Notes under the pieces: model-generated
Database searches by the model: none
Seen by the model: only the letters and a program-made list of their open reading frames with translations
What the model was told of the DNA's origin: nothing
Position numbers and translations under genes: made by a program
Source: an uncultured delta proteobacterium
Lineage (GTDB): Bacteria > Desulfobacterota > RBG-13-43-22
Direction: 5' to 3'
Assembly: GCA_963843145.1 (NCBI GenBank)
Contig: CAWJJC010000027.1
Location: forward strand, 32,001-96,000
DNA: 64,000 bases
Part shown: in pieces, positions 2,353-48,967 of the stretch
Numbering within the stretch: the first letter of the stretch is position 1
Layout of the letters: every line of letters begins with the position of its first letter

Positions 2353-4332
2353 GTACGCCAGGATAAGCCTGGCTGATCTATATGACTGAAAGGTGTCATA
2401 CTTGTTAATTGCTCGTTCAACAAGAAGTTGCGGCCTCCCGCCTGGGGTAACCGAAAGCGGGGAGTAGGCCGGTCTCTGGCCAAGACGGGTAGAGGCGATA
2501 GGGGAGAGAACCCCCTGGACAACGAAGGCGTGAGCCCTAACGCAAGTGAACCTGATTCGGCCTCGTTACACTTAAATGGCGGCGGCCAACCTGCCAGAGA
2601 AGGTGAAGCCTGCCACCGGTAGGGAAGCAACGAGCGACGGTCCCTACCGGGCCGCCCGGGGTGGTTGGGGAGAGCGCGCGCCGAAAGATCAGCCGAGGAA
2701 CCTGGGAGACCCGGCGAGGTATCGGGAGGGACCGATAACATTTTCAGGGAATCCATAACCTGGAAAGTGGCCACGGCCGGGAGTCGGAGCGGCCCATAGT
2801 AGCGAGGAAGTCCCGGAAAAGGGAGGGAGCGAAGGGGCCGCACTTCAGTCACGTTTCGATCAAAAGAGGGAGAAACCGCTTGAGCCGAAAATGCTCCATT
2901 ACGGAAAAGACGGCGGAAGGGTTCCAACCGGAACCGGGGATGCCGGAGAAGGTCTCTCTGTTGCGATGGAAGCTGGGTTGTAAGGCCAAGCAAGAAAAGC
3001 AGTTTCGGTTTTATGCCCTGTACGACCGGGTATATCGCCGGGATGTATTGGAAACGGCTTGGGCTCGGGTACGGGCGAATCGAGGGAGCCCCGGGAACAG
3101 ACGGGGTGACCATTCGCAGTATCGAGGAAGGAGGCGGGGTCCGGACGTTCCTGGAAGAGATGGAACAGGAACTGCGGGCCAAGACCTACCGACCTCGACC
3201 GGTACGCCGGGTCTATATCCCCAAGATCAACGGCAAGCTGAGACCCTTGGGCATTCCCTGTATACGGGACCGGGTGGTTCAGATGGCCGTACGCTGCTGA
3301 TTCTGGAGCCGATTTTTGAGGCGGATTTTCTGGAATGCTCCTATGGGTTTCGTCCTCGGCGGAAAGCCTGGGACGGGGTGGAGCAGATCCGGAAGAATCT
3401 GGAGGACGGACGGCGAGAGGTGTATGACGCCGACCTGTCCGGCTACTTTGACAGCATTCCCCACGATCGACTGATGCAAAAGGTAGAGCGACGGATTGCC
3501 GACCAATCGGTGTTGAAACTGATCCGGATGTGGCTTGCGGGCGCCGGTAGTGGAAGACAGGGACCCCCGGAAGGAAAGAGACCCGCAAGGGAACGCCCCA
3601 AGGCGGGGTTATCTCCCCCCTGCTGGCTAACCTGTATCTCCATGAAATGGATCGGGCCTTCCATGAGGACCCCCGGGTCCTTACCGGACGGCCAAGGCCC
3701 GCCTGGTCCGATACGCCGATGATTTTGTGATCCTGTCGCACTACTGGAGTAAAGGAATCCGTTGATGGGTGGAAGAGAAGCTGGAAGGAGACCTGGGACT
3801 GGAAATAAATCGGGATAAGACGCGTATCGTAGCCCTGAACCAGAGGGGTAAGCAGTTGGACTTCTTGGGGTTCACCCTGCGATACGACCAGGACCGGAAA
3901 GGGAGGGAGAAGCGGTATCTGAATATCTTTCCCTCGGACAAGGCGGTCAACCGTCTCCGGGAGAAGATCCGAGTCAAGACTCATAGTGGTTATAAGAAGC
4001 CGCTCACCGAAGCGATCCGAGAAACCAATGTGATCCTCCGGGGCTGGGCGAATTATTTTCGGTATGGGTATCCTCGGAAGGTCTTTCGGGACGTCAACCA
4101 TTTTGTCCGTAGCGGTTTTGGTCGATTCCTGAGAAACCGGAGCCAAAGACGTAGCCGCCCGTTCCGTCCGGGAGAAAGCCTGTACGGGGGCCTGAAACGG
4201 TATGGGTTGCTTTATCTGTAAAGTCGGGCACGTCCACAACTCCTTGCGTCTGCCTTACGACAAGAGACTGTCGGAGAGCCGTATGCGGGAAATCCGCATG
4301 TACGGTTCGACGAGGGGGAGCTGAAACCCTAT
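2353..4332 (+). mobile_element. Group II intron (RT/maturase, no endonuclease domain)
   Basis: 5' GTACG at 2353; domain V gagccgtatgcgggaaatccgcatgtacggttc at 4276-4308; probable 3' end ccctat at 4332; encloses RT fragments. Boundaries are inferred. Confidence 0.85.
2880..4221 (+). pseudogene. ltrA: Group II intron reverse transcriptase/maturase, disrupted
   Basis: [49 protein letters not shown] and YADD (3712-3723) lie in different frames; in-frame TGA at 3763; maturase region LRGWANYF. Confidence 0.85.
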
Positions 4333-4584
4333 GAGCACTTCTGCCCCAAGTAGATGCGTGTGAGAGATCGTCTTTTGTCTCTGGTTGTGACTAAGCGACG
4401 TTACGGAATCCGTGTAAATACAATTATGAGACCGTTAATAAGCCTTTGAATTTTGGACCTTTGAATTTGTTTCGGCCTGCGACGAGCCCTTCGACAGGCT
4501 CAGGGCCTTGAGTTTACCGAAAGGCTCAGCCGAGACGATTTCGTGCTTCGAATTTCGGATTTGGGCCTAAAAGAAGGAGGAATC

Positions 4585-5730
4585 ATGAAGGCATTGGTAG
4601 TAGGCGGCACGGGCGGTATGGGGCAGGGGGTCGCCCGGGACCTCATTAAACAGGAGCAGATTACATCGGTAACGTTGGGCGACATAAATATAGATCCCGC
4701 GAGAGTGCAGGAAAAACTGCGGGCCAGCAATAAAGTGTCGCTTAAAAAAATTGACGTACAGGATCATAACGGCCTGGTGGCTGCCATCGAAGTAGTTGAC
4801 GTGGTCATTAATTGTGCCGGACCCTTCTACAAGACCGCCGTGGCCGTCGCCAGGGCTGCGGTTGAGGCCAAGGTCAACTATATTGATATCTGCGATGACT
4901 ATGAGGCCGTACCCATTCTCTTTTCCGAAGCCGCCATCGATAAAGCCGCTAAAGAGGCGGGAATCACCGTTCTGACGGGGATGGGCTCCGACCCCGGAAC
5001 CAATAATGTTCTGGTCAAGTGGTATGCCAATCAACTGGACCGGGTTAACGAGATCCATCTCTTCTGGGTGGTCAGTATCGCCGAACTGGCGGGTGCGGCC
5101 TGGGATCACAGCCTGCACATGGTGACGGGAAAAATCCCCCAATATCTGGACGGAAAACTGGAGTACGTGGATGGGGGCACGGGCGAGGAGATCGCCACCT
5201 TCCTTGAACCCCTGGGCACCTGTAAAGTTCGCTATGTAGGACATCCTCAGCCGATCACCATCCCCCGCTACATCGAAGGGGTGAAAAAGGTGGTTATTAA
5301 AGGCGCCCTCATACCGGGCTGGGTGGACGAATTGATCAAGGAACAAAATGATACGGGATTTCTCAGCACCGAGGTCCTGGAGGTCAGGGGAACCAAGGTC
5401 GTGCCTTACGACCTGACGCTGAAACTTTGGGATACGATTCCGAAAAGCAGGGATAACGGGCCTAATTCCTCCGGACTTAAAGTGATCGTTAAGGGCGAGC
5501 GAAACGGAAAAAAGGTGACCTATACCGCCGATATGGCGGGCCGGATGGCCCCGGGCACGGGTCTTCCCGCCTCCATTGCGGCTTTAATGATGGAGGCCGG
5601 CGAGGTGACGGTCAAGGGCGTGGTGGCCCCCGAAGGATGTATCGATCCGGAAAAATTCCTGGCCGCCTTGATAAAAAGGGGCGCCAAGATTCACCAGACG
5701 GAAACGATCAGCTCGTTGCTGACAGTGTAG
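4585..5730 (+). CDS. Saccharopine dehydrogenase / lysine 6-dehydrogenase family oxidoreductase
   Basis: GGTGGMG Rossmann motif, NCAGPF, YIDI, GMGSDPG; RBS aaggagg before the ATG at 4585. Confidence 0.88.
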   Translation: MKALVVGGTGGMGQGVARDLIKQEQITSVTLGDINIDPARVQEKLRASNKVSLKKIDVQDHNGLVAAIEVVDVVINCAGPFYKTAVAVARAAVEAKVNYIDICDDYEAVPILFSEAAIDKAAKEAGITVLTGMGSDPGTNNVLVKWYANQLDRVNEIHLFWVVSIAELAGAAWDHSLHMVTGKIPQYLDGKLEYVDGGTGEEIATFLEPLGTCKVRYVGHPQPITIPRYIEGVKKVVIKGALIPGWVDELIKEQNDTGFLSTEVLEVRGTKVVPYDLTLKLWDTIPKSRDNGPNSSGLKVIVKGERNGKKVTYTADMAGRMAPGTGLPASIAALMMEAGEVTVKGVVAPEGCIDPEKFLAALIKRGAKIHQTETISSLLTV

Positions 5731-5796
5731 TTAAACAGGTCCCGCTGAGGGCTGGGAACCGGCGAAGTCCAAGAAAAAGATTGACCTGATAAGGTT

Positions 5797-5884
5797 CGTC
5801 ATTCCGGACTACCGAAGGGAGATCCGGAATCCAGGCCTCCCAAGTTTCGAAGGTCCTGGATGCCGGATCAGGTCCGGCATGACG
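5797..5884. repeat. Palindromic REP/RPE-like element (GTCATTCC...GATGAC family)
   Basis: cgtcattccgga...atccagg and cctggatgccgga...catgacg arms; relatives at 29817, 29916 and 56789. Confidence 0.8.
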
Positions 5885-5919
5885 GCTAAAAACAATAGGT
5901 ATGGAAAAGGAAACTTTCT

Positions 5920-7176
5920 ATGAAAAACATGGATAAACTGAATATTGCTAAAAGTCAGGAAATTTATCAAGAGGCCCTGTCTTTGGTCCCCGGGGGAGTC
6001 CTGGGCGCCCGGAAACCCGCTGATTTTATCGAGGGAGAATACCCCATCTTTGTGGAAAGCGGCCGGGGCGGCCGGGTCACCGACGTGGATGGCAATGAAT
6101 ATATCGATTTCCTTTGCGGGTATGGGCCCATAATTTTGGGTTATCGAGAAGAAGAAGTGGACGAAGCGGTTATCCGCCAGTTGAGGGACAAAGGCTTCTG
6201 CTTCACCTTAACCCAACGATATCAGAATGAGCTGGCTAAAAAGCTGAGCCAACTGGTCCCCTGTTCGGAAATGAGTATTTTTTTAAAGACCGGATCCGAT
6301 GCCACCACGGCGAGTATCCGGATTGCCCGGGCCTATACCAACCGGATCAAGGTAATGCGTTGCGGTTACCATGGCTGGCATGATTGGTGTGTGGAGATGA
6401 AGGGGGGCGTTCCTGAAAAGTTCTATGAGGATGTCTTTGAATTTCGGTATAACCGTCTCGATCAACTCGAGGACCTGATGGCCAAGCACGGGGAGCAGAC
6501 CGCGGCCATCATTATGACCCCCTTTGGGCACCCCCTGCATGCCAAGATGGAAGAGCCTAAACCCGGGTTCCTGGAAGGGGTCAGGGAAATCGCCACCCGC
6601 TATGGCGCTATTTTGGTCTTTGATGAAGTGCGGACCGGATTCAGGCTGGCCCTGGGAGGGGCGCAAGCCTATTACGGGGTCACCCCCGACCTGGTGGTCC
6701 TGGGAAAAGGGATGGCCAATGGCTATGCCATTAGTGTGGTTACCGGGAAAAGAGAAGTAATGATGGCTTCCGCCCAGAGGCTTTTCATCTCTTCCACCTT
6801 CTTTCCTAACAGTGACGGGTTTGTGGCCGCGCTGAAAACCATTGAAATTCTCGAACGGGACCGGGTCCTGGACCAGATCTGGGAAAAAGGGACCCGCTTT
6901 TGGAAAAAAATTCAGGGCTGCCTTGACCGCTACGACGTGGGAGCCGAGCTAAGCGGAGTAGCCCCCATGTTTTTCATAACCTTTAAGCGGGATGAAGCCA
7001 AAACCTATCGGGCTAAACGGGATGATTTTTATACCCAGCTTATTCGCCGACGGGTCTTTTTGCACCCGCACCATCATGGCTATATCTGTCACCGGCACAC
7101 CGATGAGGATCTGGCCCTGGCGGTTCAGGCTATAGAGGAGGCCCTGGCCTACGTCAAAGAAAAATACGCCCGTTAA
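5920..7176 (+). CDS. Class III PLP-dependent aminotransferase (glutamate-1-semialdehyde aminomutase-like)
   Basis: DVDGNEYIDF, YHGW, FDEVRTGFR and LGKGMANG motifs. Confidence 0.9.
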   Translation: MKNMDKLNIAKSQEIYQEALSLVPGGVLGARKPADFIEGEYPIFVESGRGGRVTDVDGNEYIDFLCGYGPIILGYREEEVDEAVIRQLRDKGFCFTLTQRYQNELAKKLSQLVPCSEMSIFLKTGSDATTASIRIARAYTNRIKVMRCGYHGWHDWCVEMKGGVPEKFYEDVFEFRYNRLDQLEDLMAKHGEQTAAIIMTPFGHPLHAKMEEPKPGFLEGVREIATRYGAILVFDEVRTGFRLALGGAQAYYGVTPDLVVLGKGMANGYAISVVTGKREVMMASAQRLFISSTFFPNSDGFVAALKTIEILERDRVLDQIWEKGTRFWKKIQGCLDRYDVGAELSGVAPMFFITFKRDEAKTYRAKRDDFYTQLIRRRVFLHPHHHGYICHRHTDEDLALAVQAIEEALAYVKEKYAR

Positions 7177-38545: not shown

Positions 38546-38880
38546 TGATTTATCTGCGACTCTTCGGGCGCTGCCGGATTTATCATGATCCTGTCAGCCC
38601 GGTTTTAGCTGCGCCGGCCCAGATCGGCTGGGAGGCCTGGTTTCGAACCATCGATCTGGTCACACCCCGTCGATTAAAGGGACGGGAATTGCTGGATCGC
38701 ACCCGGGGCTGGTGGACCGTCGAGCCCGACGAGGTGGCCGAAGTGGTAGCGCCCTTCGGACGCCTGGTGGTTGGGGAAAAAGGGGAGTTATTTGTTGAGT
38801 TGACGGACTAAGCCGTTGCGGAATCCCTGAAAAAGGCCCTGGCGGAACGATTTAAGGATCAGGTCCTGCTGGCGCCTTAA
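38545..38880 (+). CDS. Hypothetical protein with in-frame TAA at 38809-38811
   Basis: ATG overlaps the upstream stop; the frame continues after TAA as AVAESLKKALAERFKDQVLLAP. Confidence 0.55.
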
Positions 38881-39032
38881 GAGGTAAATAAACTCGGGCT
38901 ACAAAGTATTCATTAATAGTTAATAATGAACAATTGATTATTAATTATTAATGTCATCCGGTTAGGCTTAAATTTGCCCCTCTATTTTTAGACCTCGGGA
39001 TACCCGCCCGCGGGCGTGTTGGTTTAGTTTCT

Positions 39033-39160
39033 CGTAGGGGCGGCGACCCCGCCGCCCAACCCGGAGCCGGATTTAGCCACTGTCGTCGTAGCCTTACCTT
39101 GGATGTACTGCGAACCTTATCCCTCACCCAGATGGCCGGCGGGGTCGCCGGCCCTACGAA
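39033..39160. repeat. REP-like element with inverted GTAGGG arms
   Basis: cgtaggggcggcgaccccgccg ... cggcggggtcgccggccctacg. Confidence 0.8.
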
Positions 39161-40767
39161 AAACTGAGAGACAAAATTCTCCCCCACCCATAATTTCCTA
39201 CTTCGTGGAAGCCCGCCTCGATCCTGGTTACTCCGACGGGGCAGGCAATAGTTTCGGGGTTTCCTGGTTCCAACTGAAAGAAGGCCATATCCGTGGCCAT
39301 TTCTTCCGCTCCTTCGGCGTTTTTCTGGGTCACACCCTCGATCTGGACTATAGCCTGGCTGACTTGATCAAGCCCCTGGGACTGTTCCTGACTGGCCTCG
39401 GAAATCTCACTGATCAGACTCTTCGCCTTTTGAGTCCCGGTCAAAATCCGATCAAAAAGTTCGCCGGTCTTCTTGACCATTCCTGATCCTTGCTCGATCT
39501 TGCTGATGGTGTTTTTTATCAGATCGGCCGTATTTTTCGAGGCCTCAGTCGATTTCAGGGCCAGGCTCCGCACCTCATTGGCCACTACGGCGAATCCGGC
39601 GCCCGCCTCCCCGGCCCGAGCGGCCTCAACGGCGGCATTCAAGGCCAGCAGGTTGGTTTGAAAGGCGATTTCATCGATCGTCTTGATGATTTTTCCGATC
39701 TCCAGACCCGCCTCCGAAATGTGTTTCATGGAAAGGCCCAGATCCTGCATACTATGATCGGCCTGTTCGACCAATCCGGTGTTCTCAATGATCAGCCGGT
39801 CGGCGAAACGGGCATTTTCGGCATTTTGTTTGGTCATGGAGGCGATTTCGTTGATCGAGGCCGAGGTTTCTTCGAAGGCGCTGGCCTGGCTGGAAGATCC
39901 GTCCGCCACCTGGCGGGAGAGGTGCATCACTTTTTGAATCACCCGGCGCAATTGGCCGGTCATTTGAGTGAAAGACCGGTTCAGTTGACCTACCTCGTCC
40001 TCTGTGGTCTGCTGGTCTTGCCCCCCGGCGGATAAATCCCCTTGGGCCAATTGTTCGGCCCTTGCGGCCACCACCCGGATCGGCTGAACGACGTATCGGT
40101 TCGTCAGAAAAAACACCAGCACGATAATGCCGACGATGCCCAGCCCGCCAAAGAGCAATCCCAACAATCGGGTCCGATTCAAGGCCGAGACCACTTGCTC
40201 ACTGGACTGCCTGACCAGCAATCCTCCCAGAACCGAATGGCTTTGTCCGTGGCAGTGATAGCAGGCCGGCTTATTCTGGATCGGCTGGACCACGGAAAAA
40301 AACGGCTGCCCCCCCACCGTTTCTTCAAACCCCGCGTCCTGGGCGGTCCCGTCTTTCAAAACTTTCTTTACGGTCGAAAGGCCCCGGGGATTGGCGACAA
40401 AATTGCTCAGCGATTGATCGATCATGGCTTTTTCGGTGGCAAAGGAGACCTTCTGATCAAAATCAAAAACAAAGACCTGAATGGCCTTCATCTTTTCCTG
40501 CATCTGGGAGAGTTGGTTTTTTACGGTTTCATTATCACCCCTGGAAAGGGGATAGATGATCCCGTTGAATACCGATCCGCCCAGCAGGTCGCCCGACCGT
40601 TTCAATTGCGTACGGATACTGTTTTCCTGCCCGGTTATGAGGACGTAAAGGAGGAGGCCCACCACCAACACGGTAATGACCGACAAAGTCAGCAGCAATT
40701 TCATTTGCAAACTGGAGGCTATTTTCTTGAGACCGGGCAGATGAAAGCGTTTATCGGGATTGAACAT
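39154..40767 (-). CDS. Methyl-accepting chemotaxis protein with periplasmic c-type heme motif
   Basis: Two TM helices, CYHCH in the periplasmic domain, HAMP (DEVGQL), [20 protein letters not shown]. Confidence 0.92.
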
Positions 40768-41803: not shown

Positions 41804-41856
41804 AGGCCGGAGGAAGTGTTTCCACGCGCCGGTGACCTGCCCCCCCCTCCCACCTC

Positions 41857-42807
41857 TCAATTATTGAAAATCAGTGGATACCAGATGGTATAGAGGCATT
41901 TGAAGTAACCGCTCCAGTCAATCGTATCGGCGTCGACGGCCTTTACCAGTTTAATCGCCAAATCCTTGGTGTCGGGGCGGATACGGAGTATGAATTCACT
42001 CATCCCGATCGGATTGGCGGGGTTTCCCCAATCATAGGTGTACCCCAACCGGGTCCACGGGTCTCCCCAGCCGCTCGGGTCTTCACCCTCGCGATGGTAG
42101 ATGGTCTCGGCCCGATCCATAAACCATTGTTTGAAGGTTTTCGGGGGCAGCCAGGAGGCCTCCAAAAAAAGCGCGGTGTCGTTGATTTGGATAAAAGGAT
42201 TGCCGTCCTGGGGAAAGGTCCAGTTTCCTGGCCCAATTTGTCTGGCCAGCATGGCTTCATGGTCGTTGGCTTCGGGGTCCGGACTGGGTCGAAAGAGATC
42301 GGAAGGGGAGACCCACATTTCCAGAAAGACATCGAAAGGATAGGCCGGGTTAAGGCCCATCAATTGGCGGACCCGTTCTTTGGTGGGGGGACAGGTTTGC
42401 CCCATGAAAAAATTTTTAAGCTCCGGGACGACGGTGACCCAGAGGCTTTTGGTCAGATGATATTCCGGATCGTTCAGGTGGGAGGCGTAGTAATTCTGGT
42501 AGCTGGCCCGGGACATAAAGGCGCCCACCAGGATACGGGATTGTCCTGGCACGCCTTCCCAAACGATTTCCCCGCCGTGTAACCGTTCATGATTGATCGG
42601 GTCCCAACTTGGAAGAACGGCCAGGAGCTTCGTGCTGATTTTATCCTGGCTGGCGGTTTCCGTTGCCGCCAGAGCGTCGTAATAAGCCTTTTTATCGGCC
42701 GGGGAGACTTCCAGGCCCCAGACCGGTGTGAGAAGAATCCCCGTCAGCCAAAAAAAGAAGCCCAAGAGGAGCATTCCTCTTGAACTACACTTAAAGCGGG
42801 TCGCCAT
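41857..42807 (-). CDS. Secreted hypothetical protein
   Basis: Signal peptide; WVT.VPEL, DLFRP and PWTRLGYTYDWG motifs; ends YPLIFNN. Confidence 0.7.
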   Translation of the reverse strand: MATRFKCSSRGMLLLGFFFWLTGILLTPVWGLEVSPADKKAYYDALAATETASQDKISTKLLAVLPSWDPINHERLHGGEIVWEGVPGQSRILVGAFMSRASYQNYYASHLNDPEYHLTKSLWVTVVPELKNFFMGQTCPPTKERVRQLMGLNPAYPFDVFLEMWVSPSDLFRPSPDPEANDHEAMLARQIGPGNWTFPQDGNPFIQINDTALFLEASWLPPKTFKQWFMDRAETIYHREGEDPSGWGDPWTRLGYTYDWGNPANPIGMSEFILRIRPDTKDLAIKLVKAVDADTIDWSGYFKCLYTIWYPLIFNN

Positions 42808-43076
42808 ATCCTTTTCCTCCTAGAAGATCCCGAACTGGTTTTTCTGCCTGATAGTATATCGGCAGAAAGGGCTTGAGGTTTAGAAACCGCTCCTGAGGGG
42901 CAAGGCCACGATTCAAAGGGCAAAAAATGGAGAAAGAAACGGCCATATCTGGTCTAATTCTCAACTTTTTTTCTTCTTGACCCTCGTTTCCTTCTCATTA
43001 TATGATTCCACAGAAAAATGAAATATTTATCAAAAACGCTTTTCATCTCCATAAGTAGAATGGGTTGCTAAAACTT

Positions 43077-45287
43077 ATGACTTATAGAGATATCAGAGAT
43101 TTCCTAAGCCAGCTTTACTTGGAGGACGACCGTCCGTGGCTGGTGGGGTTCAGTGGCGGCAAGGACAGTACCATGCTTGCATCACTGGTGTTTAACGCCG
43201 TCCTATCCGTCCCTGATGGGCAACGAAAAAAACCAGTATCCGTTCTCTGCACCAACACGGGCGTAGAAATCCCGGCAATTGTTGAAATGGTCGAAGGCAC
43301 GTTGGCGCGGATGCGCAAGTTTTCTCAACAGAACGACCTTAATATCCAGGTCAACCTTCTTAAGCCGCCGCCCGAACAATCATTTTGGGTGAACGTCATC
43401 GGTCGTGGTTACCCGCCACCTAACCGGACCTTCCGCTGGTGCACGCAGCGCCTGAAGATTGACCCTGTCAACGTCTTCATGAACCAGCGGCTCGGTCATT
43501 GGGGGGAAGCAATCCTGCACCTGGGTGCCCGTCGGGCAGAAAGTACCACCCGGGCACAAACGATGGCAGGTCGCCAAACCCGCAAAGGCCTTATTCGTCA
43601 CCCCGACCTGCCGCGCGTCTGGGTGTCCAACCCAATCGAATTCCTTACCACTGAGGAAGTATGGGCATACCTATTACAGAAATCCACCCCTTGGGGAAAC
43701 GATAATCGATCACTTTATAAGCTCTACAACAATGCCTCCAACGGGGAATGTCCTATACAGATTGATACCAGCACCCCGGCCTGCGGTCACTCCCGCTTCG
43801 GCTGTTGGACCTGCACCGTCGTTGACCGCGACAAAGCCAGCGAAGGCCTGCTCGCCGCTGGCGATGAACGGATGGAGCACTTGATTGAGTTTCGCGAAAC
43901 ACTCCTTGAATTCCGTAACCCCGATAATGGTTGGCGCGACATCCGGCGAATGAATGGGAATGATGGCCCCGGCCCACTTCGCATCAAAGGTCGTCGGGAA
44001 TTATTAAAACGCCTGCTTTACCTCCAGGAAAAAACGGGTTTGAAACTCATCACGCCGGAAGAACTCCTTCTTATTCAACAATTTTGGAAAGCAGCCCGAG
44101 ATCCCGATGATGGTCGGGGCGTTGCCCGCATTGTTAATAAACAAAGAGGTGTTGTCATGAACACGGACCTCAAAGAACTGAATCGGCTTCGTGAAATGGA
44201 AGAGGAAGTAACAAGAATGCTGTGTGTCCGCGCGGATACTTTACGCCGCATGCTTGCCAAGGTGGAAGAATACAGCGAAAGCCACCGTGCCCATGGACTG
44301 CCGGATGATCTTCTCAATATTTTAAAAGATGATCTTTATATAAATGCCGCTCAGGAAATAAATTCTCCTCACATTAACCCGATGGTCAACGACCAAGAGT
44401 ACTGGTTACATAAACTCGCAACGTTACGGATTGACCGTGCGCGGGGAAATCCGGCGCCCCACAAGCCACTTCTCCTGCTGGTCATTATCGAGATGGCAGA
44501 GAAGGGCGAGATCCAGAGCCGTGAAATTACTCTCTCTCCTGATTTTGCTTTCAGGTTCACTATGTATTGGTCTGTTGTAGCCCATCGTCGCAAGCAGCCA
44601 CCCGAAGTGCGGCTCCCTTTTCACCACCTTGGATCATCTGGAATATGGCAACCCTTCACGGCAGAAGGAAAACCTTCGCCAGATAAAAAATTGACCACAA
44701 TGATTAGACTTAACCCAGCATTCTTCGATTGTCTTGCTGATCAGAAATTTCGTGATCAAGCGCGAAGAGTACTGATTGAAACGGAACCATATTTCTTGCC
44801 TGAAGAAAGAGCAGCACTATACGGCGTGCTTAAGATCAAACCGACTGCACCCGAAATTCATGAAAACCAAGAATTGTACAAAAAAAGCGTTCAAAAGGGG
44901 CGCGACGCTCGCTTTCGAATTGAGGTGGTTCTCGCCTACAAACACACCTGTGGCCTTACAGGTTATAGGATGACCACTCTTGAGATGGAGAGCATTGTGG
45001 ATGCGGCGCATATTCAAGAGTTTCGTGACTCCAGCAACAATGATCCCCGCAACGGGATAGCACTTTCAAAGAATGCGCACTGGCAGTTTGATCGAGGTCT
45101 TTGGTCGTTGAACGATGATTACCGTGTTCTCGTGAACAGAGAAAAGTTTATCGAAGACGGAGTGCCGGGACAACGACTTGCAGATTTTGAGGGGAGAAGG
45201 ATTTTTTTACCAAGCGATCCAAAGTATTGGCCAGAGCACACTTATCTAGATTGGCATCGCAAGCGGCACGGTTTCCCACCAAGGTGA
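43077..45287 (+). CDS. dndC: DndC-like DNA phosphorothioation sulfurtransferase joined in frame to an SBD-HNH endonuclease
   Basis: PWLVGFSGGKDS, GRGYPPP..FRWCT.RLKI and EC...CG.SRFGCWTC; from 44382 APHKPLLLL, LPFHHL, CGLTG, AAHI and NGIALSKNAH..FDRG. Confidence 0.85.
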   Translation: MTYRDIRDFLSQLYLEDDRPWLVGFSGGKDSTMLASLVFNAVLSVPDGQRKKPVSVLCTNTGVEIPAIVEMVEGTLARMRKFSQQNDLNIQVNLLKPPPEQSFWVNVIGRGYPPPNRTFRWCTQRLKIDPVNVFMNQRLGHWGEAILHLGARRAESTTRAQTMAGRQTRKGLIRHPDLPRVWVSNPIEFLTTEEVWAYLLQKSTPWGNDNRSLYKLYNNASNGECPIQIDTSTPACGHSRFGCWTCTVVDRDKASEGLLAAGDERMEHLIEFRETLLEFRNPDNGWRDIRRMNGNDGPGPLRIKGRRELLKRLLYLQEKTGLKLITPEELLLIQQFWKAARDPDDGRGVARIVNKQRGVVMNTDLKELNRLREMEEEVTRMLCVRADTLRRMLAKVEEYSESHRAHGLPDDLLNILKDDLYINAAQEINSPHINPMVNDQEYWLHKLATLRIDRARGNPAPHKPLLLLVIIEMAEKGEIQSREITLSPDFAFRFTMYWSVVAHRRKQPPEVRLPFHHLGSSGIWQPFTAEGKPSPDKKLTTMIRLNPAFFDCLADQKFRDQARRVLIETEPYFLPEERAALYGVLKIKPTAPEIHENQELYKKSVQKGRDARFRIEVVLAYKHTCGLTGYRMTTLEMESIVDAAHIQEFRDSSNNDPRNGIALSKNAHWQFDRGLWSLNDDYRVLVNREKFIEDGVPGQRLADFEGRRIFLPSDPKYWPEHTYLDWHRKRHGFPPR

Positions 45288-45317
45288 TAGTTAATTCAAT
45301 CCCCCTGTAACCCTCTG

Positions 45318-46460
45318 TTACGGCGTGAATTCGCGGTCCCAGAGGGCATCGAGGAAAAGGCGGTAGGGGAGTATTCGGACTGCCCCCACCTGCCGCGGTC
45401 GATTCTCCAGACTGACACAGAGAAAAGCGCTTAAGGTTTTTCTCTTCCGCTAGGGCGTTCAGAGATTTAAGGTCCTGAATGGTTACGGTTTTCTTGGCTT
45501 TGATTTCTATGGCGGTGTGATCGCCCAGGATGAAATCGACCTCGAATCCTGAGTTGGAACGCCAATAGTTGACCGGCTCACCGGAGAGATAGTCCCGGTA
45601 ACTCAGCAGCTCATGAAGAATCCAGGTCTCAAAGGCAAGCCCGAACTCGGGTGTGCCTGGTTTGACCAAGCGGCCCTGTAAGGCTGAAGCTACGCCGACA
45701 TCGAAGAAATAGTACTTGGAAGACGTCAGTGGCTTACGTTTGTGGGAATGGCGCCAAGCCGGGACTTCGTGCAGGAGCAGGGTATCCTTTAATATTTCGA
45801 AATACTCATAGACCGTGGTGCGGGGTACTTGGGCATCATTGGAAACATTGGTGTAGTTGACGACCGTCGCATTACACAGAGCGGCTACGTGCAGGAATCG
45901 GCTGAAGGCGGGAACGTTTCGAGTCGCCCCTTCCGCAACGATTTCCTGTTGCAGATAGGTGCCGGTATACGCGTCCAGATCCGCTTGGGGATCGTCGGAG
46001 AAATAGACCGAAGGCAGTAAACCTCGGGCAATGGCCTTTCCCAGATCGAAACGCGTCCCCAATTCCCGATAGGTCAAGGGATGCAGGTATCGGGTACGAG
46101 CGCGACCACCGAGCAGGTTAACGCCACCTCGCCTCAATTTACGGGCACTGGAGCCTGTTAACAGAAATCGAATCCGTCGTTTCTCGATAAGGCGGTGGAC
46201 GGCGTGGAGAAGGTCAGGAAGAGGATGGACTTCTCAATAACCACTACCTTATTTTCTGGTGACAGTTGCTCTTCCAGAAGACCGGGATTTCGACTGAGGG
46301 CCAGGTAAACGGAACTATCGAGTAGATCGTACAATTGGATCCCGGAAAACAACCGGTGAATCAGGAAGGTCTTGCCGGTCTGACGTGGTCCGAAAAGAAA
46401 ATGTGATTTCGTTCCCATCCAGCCGACAAGGTCAGGAAGACGATTGATGGCCGGCGGCTC
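45318..46460 (-). pseudogene. AAA+ ATPase with DUF4143 (two frameshifts, start unclear)
   Basis: GPRQTGKT, LTGSS, LLGGRA, KYYFFDVG and EVDF...IEIK spread over three frames. Confidence 0.8.
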
Positions 46461-46571
46461 GTGGCCCTTTTTCAGGTTGTGACGCTTTATCGTCAAATAG
46501 TATGTCAAATGACGAAACCGTCGTCAATAAAAAACATCCAGGGGGACTGTTCAGGACTTTGGGCAAGTTGT

Positions 46572-48650: not shown

Positions 48651-48967
48651 AAAGGCTCCTTTAAGTAGAACATTAAGTATTAATAATTAACAATTGATTA
48701 TTAATTATTAAGTTTGTGTTTAGGACAAAGCTGAAGGACTCACAAAAAGTCGATCAGATCAAGTTTTTCATTCTGAGCGATAGCTAAGGAGCAATTTTTA
48801 TCAGCTACTTGAGATATCTTTCATGGATTTTACCCTAAATATTCAGGTTTCGTTGGTCTTCGCCAGGGGTCTGGGCGTTTAGTCGAGATTATTTTTTTTT
48901 ATGATATTAGGGGCAAATAGGGTAGGGTGTCAAATTAAAATAAAAATACCGGGGATTATAAAGGATT

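Follow-up and report, generated by a model that had tools for sequence, protein, structure and literature searches.

A DndC–SBD-HNH reading frame as a probable one-base joint between two genes of an eroding dnd island

Introduction

Why should a protein that takes part in writing phosphorothioate (PT) into DNA be read as one chain with a nuclease of the type that cuts PT-marked DNA? The question is posed by one open reading frame (ORF) in a 64,000-nucleotide stretch of an uncultured delta proteobacterium (Desulfobacterota, RBG-13-43-22; assembly GCA_963843145.1, contig CAWJJC010000027.1, positions 32,001–96,000). The whole stretch is called the window here, and positions are counted within it. 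The first half of the ORF is a DndC, and the second half is a sulfur-binding domain (SBD) followed by an HNH nuclease. A reading made from the sequence alone had seen in it either a one-gene defence module, which marks and then cuts invading DNA or serves as a decoy, or a deletion scar that joined two genes. PT formation is reported to depend on dndA, dndC, dndD and dndE (PMC8569181), and a module without its ABC ATPase and DndE is described as non-functional (PMC10853773).

The answer developed here is that the fused protein, taken alone, probably arose by accident and not as a new one-gene defence system. We consider it likely that two normally separate, translationally coupled genes were joined by the loss of one base, and that the pair is what remains of a larger, eroded dnd island. 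The part worth following is not the fusion itself but the repeated replacement of part of dndD by nuclease cassettes that read PT.

The fused reading frame and its joint

The frame is open over 43077–45287 on the forward strand and encodes 736 aa without a stop, as the sequence-only reading had it; the longest version of the ORF starts at TTG 43065. The assignment of the first half to DndC also held. The NCBIfam profile TIGR03183 (DndC) matches residues 11–418 with 364.3 bits (cut-off 290.4), the PADLOC DndC model matches the N-terminal half with 402 bits, and the motifs quoted earlier (SGGKDS, GYPPPNRTFRWCT and CGHSRFGCWTC) are all present and all lie on invariant alignment columns. The second half is confirmed as SBD-HNH by matches to Pfam HNH_2 (38.6 bits, cut-off 21) and to the solved sulfur-binding domain 8h0l (SBDHga; E 1.8e-7), with a score for the family NF045808 that stays below its cut-off. 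What had been taken for an AT-rich linker of about 20 aa is really the variable C-terminal tail of DndC itself, and the new joint amounts to four residues (HINP).

At the joint, the old end of dndC can still be read one base out of frame as CAT TAA (TAA 44375–44377), followed by CCCG (44378–44381) and ATG. A stop, a short spacer and an ATG occupy the junction in 16 of the 16 relatives compared, and in close relatives it reads '...CAC TAA cacg ATG', that is, a stop, 4 nt and a start; a spacer of 4 nt offsets the dndC and nuclease frames by one. The dndC TAA is out of frame because the window is one base short at a point ~6 nt ahead of that TAA. In the nearest relative, a 4446-nt groundwater contig (run X5, ~89% identical), one more A follows 44369, and its DndC ends with ...P-T-H-stop. 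The closest protein (P0002), which is reported from a contig of equal length, has the tail ...NSTTH. The fusion changes just the last three DndC residues and then passes through HINP into the nuclease's own Met436. The earlier proposal of a deletion scar stands as far as a scar that joins two genes is concerned, but dndD and dndE were not deleted at the joint; judging from these junctions, it appears essentially right that a single base was lost just ahead of the dndC stop. Likewise, the expectation that homologues might all be separate genes with dndD/E in between was half correct: they are separate in all cases, but directly adjacent. This adjacency in relatives arises because an SBD-HNH cassette overwrote the 5' part of dndD.

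Distribution of the fusion

The best 120 matches to the fused protein among 5.8 billion proteins are without exception stand-alone DndC proteins (411–452 aa, 81–92% identical, 55–59% query coverage). Three proteins of 404–1288 aa were found to match residues 437–736, none of them with the DndC domain PF01507. An exhaustive HMMER search of 1.84 billion cluster representatives, which ranked a 435-aa DndC top (769 bits) and had a 303-aa nuclease as its best match to the C-terminal half (336 bits), yielded no full fusion among the 150 best representatives. A scan of genome contigs gave 59 loci, which tblastn resolved into 26 with both genes, 32 with the nuclease gene alone and 1 with dndC alone. 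The full fusion is absent from all 65 other loci that hold both genes (26 from genomes, 39 from metagenomes).

Several candidates for a second fusion were rejected. P0258 (270 aa) is a deletion chimera in which DndC residues 42–101 are joined to nuclease residues 523–730, and L060 is a 223-aa in-frame deletion scar; these short chimeras are all that the search for other proteins of the DndC+SBD+HNH architecture returned. L138 was falsely flagged by a script, the ORF listing showing a stop between the genes, and L004–L007, which gave single in-frame tblastn alignments, have a TAA between the genes in both the ORF listing and the junction DNA. The proposed one-gene mark-then-cut or decoy module gains no support from these searches, and a designed one-gene writer-reader module is unsupported. 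The fusion itself looks like a one-off and is ordinary, or possibly an artefact.

Origin of the gene pair

The metagenome scan was seeded with the stand-alone DndC P0073 and comprised 80 loci, the best 80 of 198; flanking ORFs of related loci were clustered and representatives were annotated. A dndA-type cysteine desulfurase is encoded on the opposite strand in the flanks of 25 loci, and DndE::HerA/FtsK fusions, DndB-like proteins and pieces of DndD also occur. In intact clusters, dndC is followed by dndD (~690 aa), dndE::HerA (492 aa) and variable genes, with dndA encoded on the other strand. By presence alone, an SBD-HNH gene lies downstream of dndC in 39 of the 80 metagenome loci. Classification of 73 of the 80 gave 31 with dndD after dndC, 20 with HNH1 (the type of the window), 13 with HNH2, 4 with a DndD stub and then HNH, and 5 that were unclear.

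The extent of the cassette was read from the converted locus L102 and the intact locus L083. The two are homologous over 1–1346 and 2395–4949, and L102 1347–2394 (1048 nt) takes the place of L083 1723–2759 (1037 nt). The 690-aa ORF of L083 covers positions 3–635 of TIGR03185 (DndD; 184 bits), whereas a 343-aa ORF of L102 covers 395–635 only. A cassette of ~1.05 kb stands in for the first ~337 dndD codons and contains its own last ~13 dndC codons, the stop, the SBD-HNH gene and ~95 nt. Because its left breakpoint lies inside dndC, ~43 nt ahead of the stop, the cassette brings its own DndC tail, and this accounts for the two main tail classes among the 120 database proteins, of which 44 end in '...ETPxIH' (HNH1-like), 44 in '...EAQNAGAKD' (L083-like) and 32 in other ways. 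The breakpoints vary among loci. HNH1 is followed by DndD from residue 338 in L102, and HNH2 by DndD from residue 269 in L136 and L140; conversely, DndD 1–70 precedes HNH2 in L081, L099 and L119, DndD 3–77 precedes HNH3 in L143, and DndD 1–374 precedes an HNH2-like gene in L014. Since DndD 1–374 upstream overlaps both 269–end and 338–end downstream, there were at least two insertion events.

The DndD remnant of L102 lies at a dS of ~0.1 from intact clusters, while HNH1 genes differ among themselves by a dS of 0.5–3. On a quick maximum-likelihood tree, HNH1-linked DndCs are interleaved with DndCs of intact clusters (10 changes by parsimony, at least 4 of them forced by well-supported branches), and the window DndC is nearest to those of the intact clusters L083, L084 and L091. 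The low dS of the L102 remnant, the divergence of HNH1 and the interleaved tree together indicate that the cassette spreads between clusters by homologous recombination.

Other genes accompany these clusters. The interval between dndE::HerA and dndA is variable in intact clusters, including L105; in L102 (4959–9000) it encodes a 523-aa SAM-methyltransferase-domain protein, a 453-aa weakly MzaB-like ATPase and a 338-aa ORF without a family, and in other loci a DndB-like protein and a 313-aa unknown (c54). A DUF6883+DUF4926 protein (~190 aa, often as two ORFs) is encoded directly beside dndA in seven genome loci (L004, L007, L011, L015, L017, L045 and L060; in L045 at 5366–5944, reverse strand) and in several metagenome loci. 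Directly after SBD-HNH stand genes for an ORC/CDC6-like ATPase with a TIR-like or nucleoside deoxyribosyltransferase-like part (L014:11625–13895), Lamassu LmuB (L042:12160–14151; 420 bits) and an HD-domain protein (L007:10419–11609). A LigD 3'-phosphoesterase-domain gene lies beside dndA or the nuclease gene in five loci, including L009 (10495–10908) and L013 (9675–10067).

Missing partners and erosion of the island

The source genome (5.35 Mb, 32 contigs, 97.9% complete, 6.9% contaminated) contains one DndC match and one PT-nuclease match, and both are the fused ORF. The earlier remark that dndB, dndD and dndE are not recognisable in the window holds, and no such gene was found genome-wide either. 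The DndB model (TIGR03233) has no match in the whole genome, and the best match of the DndD model (TIGR03185) is a P-loop hit of 19.7 bits. The DndE model (TIGR03184) also has no match, but it matched in no genome, controls included, and shows little alone; the clade's own DndD (690 aa, L083) and DndE::HerA (496 aa, L102), used as queries with no positive control, were not found in the genome. The window DndC was thus found without a DndD and DndE of the same genome with which to act. Five of five other genomes with eroded pairs likewise contain no DndD over the cut-off (best match 41 bits).

Erosion is seen across the related loci. On the downstream side of the nuclease gene, the points at which dndA is cut vary widely (for example, residues 1–26, 1–36, 1–84, 1–105, 1–134, 1–141 and 1–174). 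Upstream of it, DndC is internally damaged in 8 of the 26 two-gene genome loci (L019, L020, L021, L031, L033, L036, L042 and L060) and cut by contig ends in two more, and dndC fragments still precede the nuclease gene in L033, L036 and L048. None of three congeners has the fused gene, and there is no complete copy in 40 relatives. In the genus, the interval 41812–46477, which is flanked by a conserved 117-aa ORF and rlmH, is a hotspot of variation. Homology with the sister genome G002 (~95% nucleotide identity) breaks off at 42888, and the same site in G002 holds 61 nt that match 44370–44430 and read CAC TAA CCCA GTG; its hotspot consists of a 316-aa ORF, this remnant and a DUF4143 gene. G001 lacks 41812–46477 altogether, and G003, in which the region is present twice (C1 and C29), has 11–13 kb of other DNA at the site.

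State of the two halves

The PP-loop (S26–S31) and the cysteines C122, C225, C236, C243 and C246 are invariant columns in the DndC alignment and are all kept in the window; these cysteines are described as Fe-S ligands and a Cys dyad (PMC10853773). The window DndC departs from its relatives at 4 of 240 positions conserved at 97% or more (D60N, R62G, V135M and N204T), which gives it rank 110 of 121. D60 and R62, which are changed near-adjacently in the window, are each kept in 119 of 120 relatives. A PDB sequence search with the DndC half returned no match at E up to 0.001.

The residues H25, K26, L75, P76 and H79, which line the SBDHga cavity (PMC10602919), are identical in the window protein at all five positions. 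Within an alignment of 40 family members, P26, K28, P29 and P79 are invariant and H27 is nearly so. The HNH invariants of alignment A2 (A208, A209, H210, N224, G225 and H233) are likewise kept, and the nuclease half departs from its subtype at 4 of 131 conserved positions, compared with 0 to 9 among relatives. A complex prediction between DndC (alignment A1) and SBD-HNH (A2) scored 0.00 in two runs made without controls, a result that weighs neither for nor against a complex.

Proposed mechanism and alternative explanations

The following course of events would account for the locus. In the source population, a cassette would have replaced the 5' part of dndD in a dndC-dndD-dndE::HerA-...-dndA cluster, and the genes downstream of the cassette would then have been deleted to many different end points, until the pair was all that remained of the cluster in the window genome. 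With one further base lost, the DndC frame would slide past its stop into the nuclease's own Met. Lacking DndD and DndE, the DndC half presumably cannot write PT. The SBD-HNH half, if active, would function as a type IV enzyme, binding to Rp-phosphorothioate in DNA that enters the cell and cutting close to it, as SprMcrA and EcoWI do. In the relatives, the nuclease is probably made by termination–reinitiation after dndC; in the window, it would carry a 48-kDa N-terminal passenger and be made at the translation level of DndC, not by re-initiation, and only as the tail of DndC unless initiation occurs internally. The locus would have gone from using PT as a mark of self to treating it as a mark of foreign DNA, and would itself be decaying in the genus. 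Our best reading from these comparisons is that of a former PT-writer island in the course of erosion, in which PT-dependent restriction would be the activity that survives and DndC would be a passenger.

A number of observations weigh against this reading. None of the DndC motifs is damaged in the window. The median dN/dS of DndC is 0.046–0.080 in HNH1-linked loci versus 0.065–0.090 in intact clusters, and it is 0.080 for 12 pairs whose dS is under 0.3, which shows no relaxed selection beside the nuclease in a sample that was seeded on intact DndC; these values leave room for a function of DndC beside the nuclease. We rejected dN/dS as a decisive test of DndC function because the tree and the comparison of L102 with L083 show recombination with intact clusters, and since HNH1-linked and intact DndCs are interleaved on the tree, recombination may keep 'refreshing' dndC. 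The match of NF045808 ('phosphorothioated DNA-binding restriction endonuclease') to residues 443–729 reaches 109.6 bits against a cut-off of 180, despite being near full length (model positions 3–280 of 284). Positions 44307–44391 are covered by no read or contig at 99% identity or more, so the one-base loss is unverified. Furthermore, writer and reader-cutter are not always exclusive, and co-residence is possible. Seven Planctomycetota loci (L049, L051–L054, L059 and L061) have a 43–49% identical SBD-HNH gene convergent with dndB and a dndA-like desulfurase gene, and in L052 it adjoins dndB, dndC (535 aa) and dndD (674 aa), a seemingly complete writer set.

Among the alternatives, the one that survives best is an artefact, in which the organism really carries two separate genes, as is usual, and the A is absent through a consensus error in a metagenome-assembled genome. 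The window differs from its relatives by one base only, its source is a 32-contig assembly with the contamination given above, and the adjoining DUF4143 gene likewise has 1-nt indels relative to G002. The joint is also unchecked by the soil-run contigs (X1–X3) that are 99–100% identical to the window, as these end at 44306 and resume at 44392; the sequencing runs that share the window sequence each hold a small share of it, at most 0.15 of words. However, the extra base in the relative lies outside a homopolymer (CCT-A-CAC), and long housekeeping genes elsewhere in the window have uninterrupted frames (SMC 1193 aa, GlyS 698 aa, RecD2 729 aa). Module erosion is moreover seen independently in the sister genome and in many relatives, and a real frameshift is therefore unsurprising. 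We regard the artefact as unlikely.

It is less probable again that the locus is a wholly dead relic, neither half being active and the ORF being open merely because too little time has passed. Such a state would agree with the deletion of the module at the same site in G002, with D60N and R62G at positions that nearly all relatives conserve, and with the 435 residues that precede a nuclease whose relatives act as dimers (EcoWI; PMC7461809). It agrees poorly with 2.2 kb free of stops and frameshifts, with SBD cavity and HNH residues that are all kept, and with a nuclease half whose subtype-conserved deviations stay within the range of its relatives.

A functional unit in which DndC and SBD-HNH cooperate, coupled or fused, possibly by an HNH nick beside an existing PT that lets DndC thiolate the other strand (maintenance) or by mark-then-cut of invaders, is the least probable of all: the stop-4 nt-ATG coupling is conserved in HNH1 loci, both genes are under strong purifying selection (dN/dS 0.04–0.16) and an undamaged DndC is kept by 16 of the 26 two-gene loci from genomes and 38 of the 39 from metagenomes (the latter a biased set, as it was seeded on DndC), but the pairing arose by the overwriting of dndD and not by design, the nuclease outlasts DndC (nuclease alone in 32 of 59 loci, DndC damaged in 8 of 26), exchange of DndC with intact clusters can alone explain the low dN/dS, dndD and dndE are reported as essential for PT (PMC8569181), and both genes are deleted in a sister genome.

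Feature map and neighbouring genes

The features of the locus are collected in Table 1.

Table 1. Parts of the fused gene and its immediate surroundings, in window positions
Feature	Positions	Strand	Basis or remark
Upstream stretch with one sigma-70-like site TTGACC-18-TATGAT (42977–43006)	42889–43076	+	Absent from sister genome G002
dndC-derived part, codons 1–431, with PP-loop SGGKDS and conserved cysteines	43077–44369	+	TIGR03183; ends where the base is missing
Joint H-I-N-P; out-of-frame CAT TAA and spacer CCCG	44370–44381	+	Junction sequence compared with relatives
Met436 start and sulfur-binding domain (SBD, winged helix; PHK, LPFHH)	44382–44876 (end approximate)	+	8h0l match
HNH nuclease core (DAAH ... 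NG ... NAH)	44949–45113	+	PF13391, residues 625–679
Nuclease C-terminal end (stop 45285–45287) and last ~30 nt of the island	45114–45317	+	Homology limits
AAA_14/DUF4143 ATPase gene, broken, two ORFs (46158–46508 and 45148–46137)	45148–46508	-	Pfam; neighbour, not part of the module

Upstream of dndC, no nucleotide homology with related loci was found. The sigma-70-like site in this stretch is a consensus match only, as the promoter search gave four sites compared with 2.5 ± 1.8 in shuffles. At the other end, homology to related cassettes runs out near 45298, and homology to G002 restarts at 45318. The 3' end of the DUF4143 gene (140 nt, its last ~57 codons) is antisense to the nuclease gene. 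This gene has several 1-nt indels relative to G002 and is common to G002 and G003 from 45318 onward; DUF4143 genes also lie near the module in eight related loci (cluster 7). A 316-aa ORF (41857–42807, reverse strand) is oriented divergently to the fused gene; G002 has it, whereas G001 does not. It was rejected as a module member, since it matches no family in Pfam or NCBIfam and lacks a homologue in the related loci. The neighbouring housekeeping genes are those for a chemoreceptor, a multihaem cytochrome, rlmH, a pyridoxal-phosphate enzyme, ftsY, smc and glyQS; the surroundings also hold two ORFs that belong to no family. Two intergenic stretches (~38876–39165 and ~48672–48840) match dozens of places in each of the three congeners (~45–150 nt, 72–97%) and look like dispersed short repeats.

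Significance

The loci surveyed belong to one widespread, horizontally mobile dnd clade (DndC 75–92% identical, several phyla), in which dndD is partly overwritten in about half of the sampled loci. The overwriting nuclease reads the very mark that the cluster writes, with at least two independent breakpoints and evidence of recombinational spread. Allelic replacement at one locus would offer a concrete genetic route by which the incompatible 'writer' and 'reader-cutter' are kept apart, and also a possible reason why some PT-dependent enzymes lie beside broken dnd genes. Intact (L083-like) and converted (L102-like) loci are natural paired alleles for studying PT self/non-self polarity switches in communities.

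A broader proposal, which we offer tentatively and lean against, is that SBD-HNH genes are cassette alleles spread by recombination, with dndC and the 3' half of dndD (or dndE/dndA) as homology arms. Because arrival of the cassette overwrites the 5' part of dndD, it would kill the PT writer and install a PT-dependent cutter in the same step. If this is true, the locus flips from 'PT = self' to 'PT = foreign', writer and cutter alleles form a roughly half-and-half polymorphism at one locus, and the window ORF is what is left late in the decay of a converted locus. The cassette may even be helped to fixation, much as in a drive, by PT-dependent cutting of the chromosome that the recipient itself has marked.

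Comparison with known systems

Compared with the canonical DndC of DndABCDE systems, the window DndC passes the TIGR03183 cut-off and shares the PP-loop and the conserved cysteines. However, no DndD or DndE partner was found for it in the genome, and its last three residues are replaced as it reads on into the nuclease. The intact relatives resemble the clade 3 Dnd clusters of PMC10853773 in that DndE::HerA/FtsK lies beside a DndD-like ABC ATPase, whereas the window keeps dndC only. SBD/wHTH-SRA-HNH nucleases are described directly downstream of Dnd modification genes in the same source, which treats them as added restriction partners and not as replacements of dndD. The literature searched, which did not cover the neighbourhood tables of PMC7461809 (Table S4) and PMC10853773 (Dataset S1), contained no account of SBD-HNH genes replacing dndD, and 'SBD' and 'HNH' do not occur as words in PMC8569181.

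On the nuclease side, the closest solved sulfur-binding domain is that of Hga (Hahella ganghwensis, PDB 8h0l). Hga differs in having a PD-(D/E)XK nuclease instead of HNH (PMC10602919), and in its base and backbone contacts: the window protein has D at the position of N16 of Hga and A at that of R18. In overall build, the window protein is like SprMcrA and EcoWI, with an N-terminal sulfur-binding winged helix, a C-terminal HNH, ~300 aa and no SRA domain; ScoMcrA has an extra SRA domain. It also shares with this type the HK and P pocket motif and the matches to NF045808 and HNH_2, the conserved motif being given as 'HR or HK and YP' in PMC7461809. The differences are the NF045808 score of 109.6 bits, below the cut-off of 180, and a pocket with L-P, as in SBDHga, in place of Y-P. 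A third difference lies in genomic context. Fewer than 3.6% of predicted PT-dependent enzymes are reported near dnd genes, with mutated clusters suggested as one explanation (PMC7461809), whereas the subfamily of the window protein is habitually found inside dnd clusters and is here translated as the tail of a DndC.

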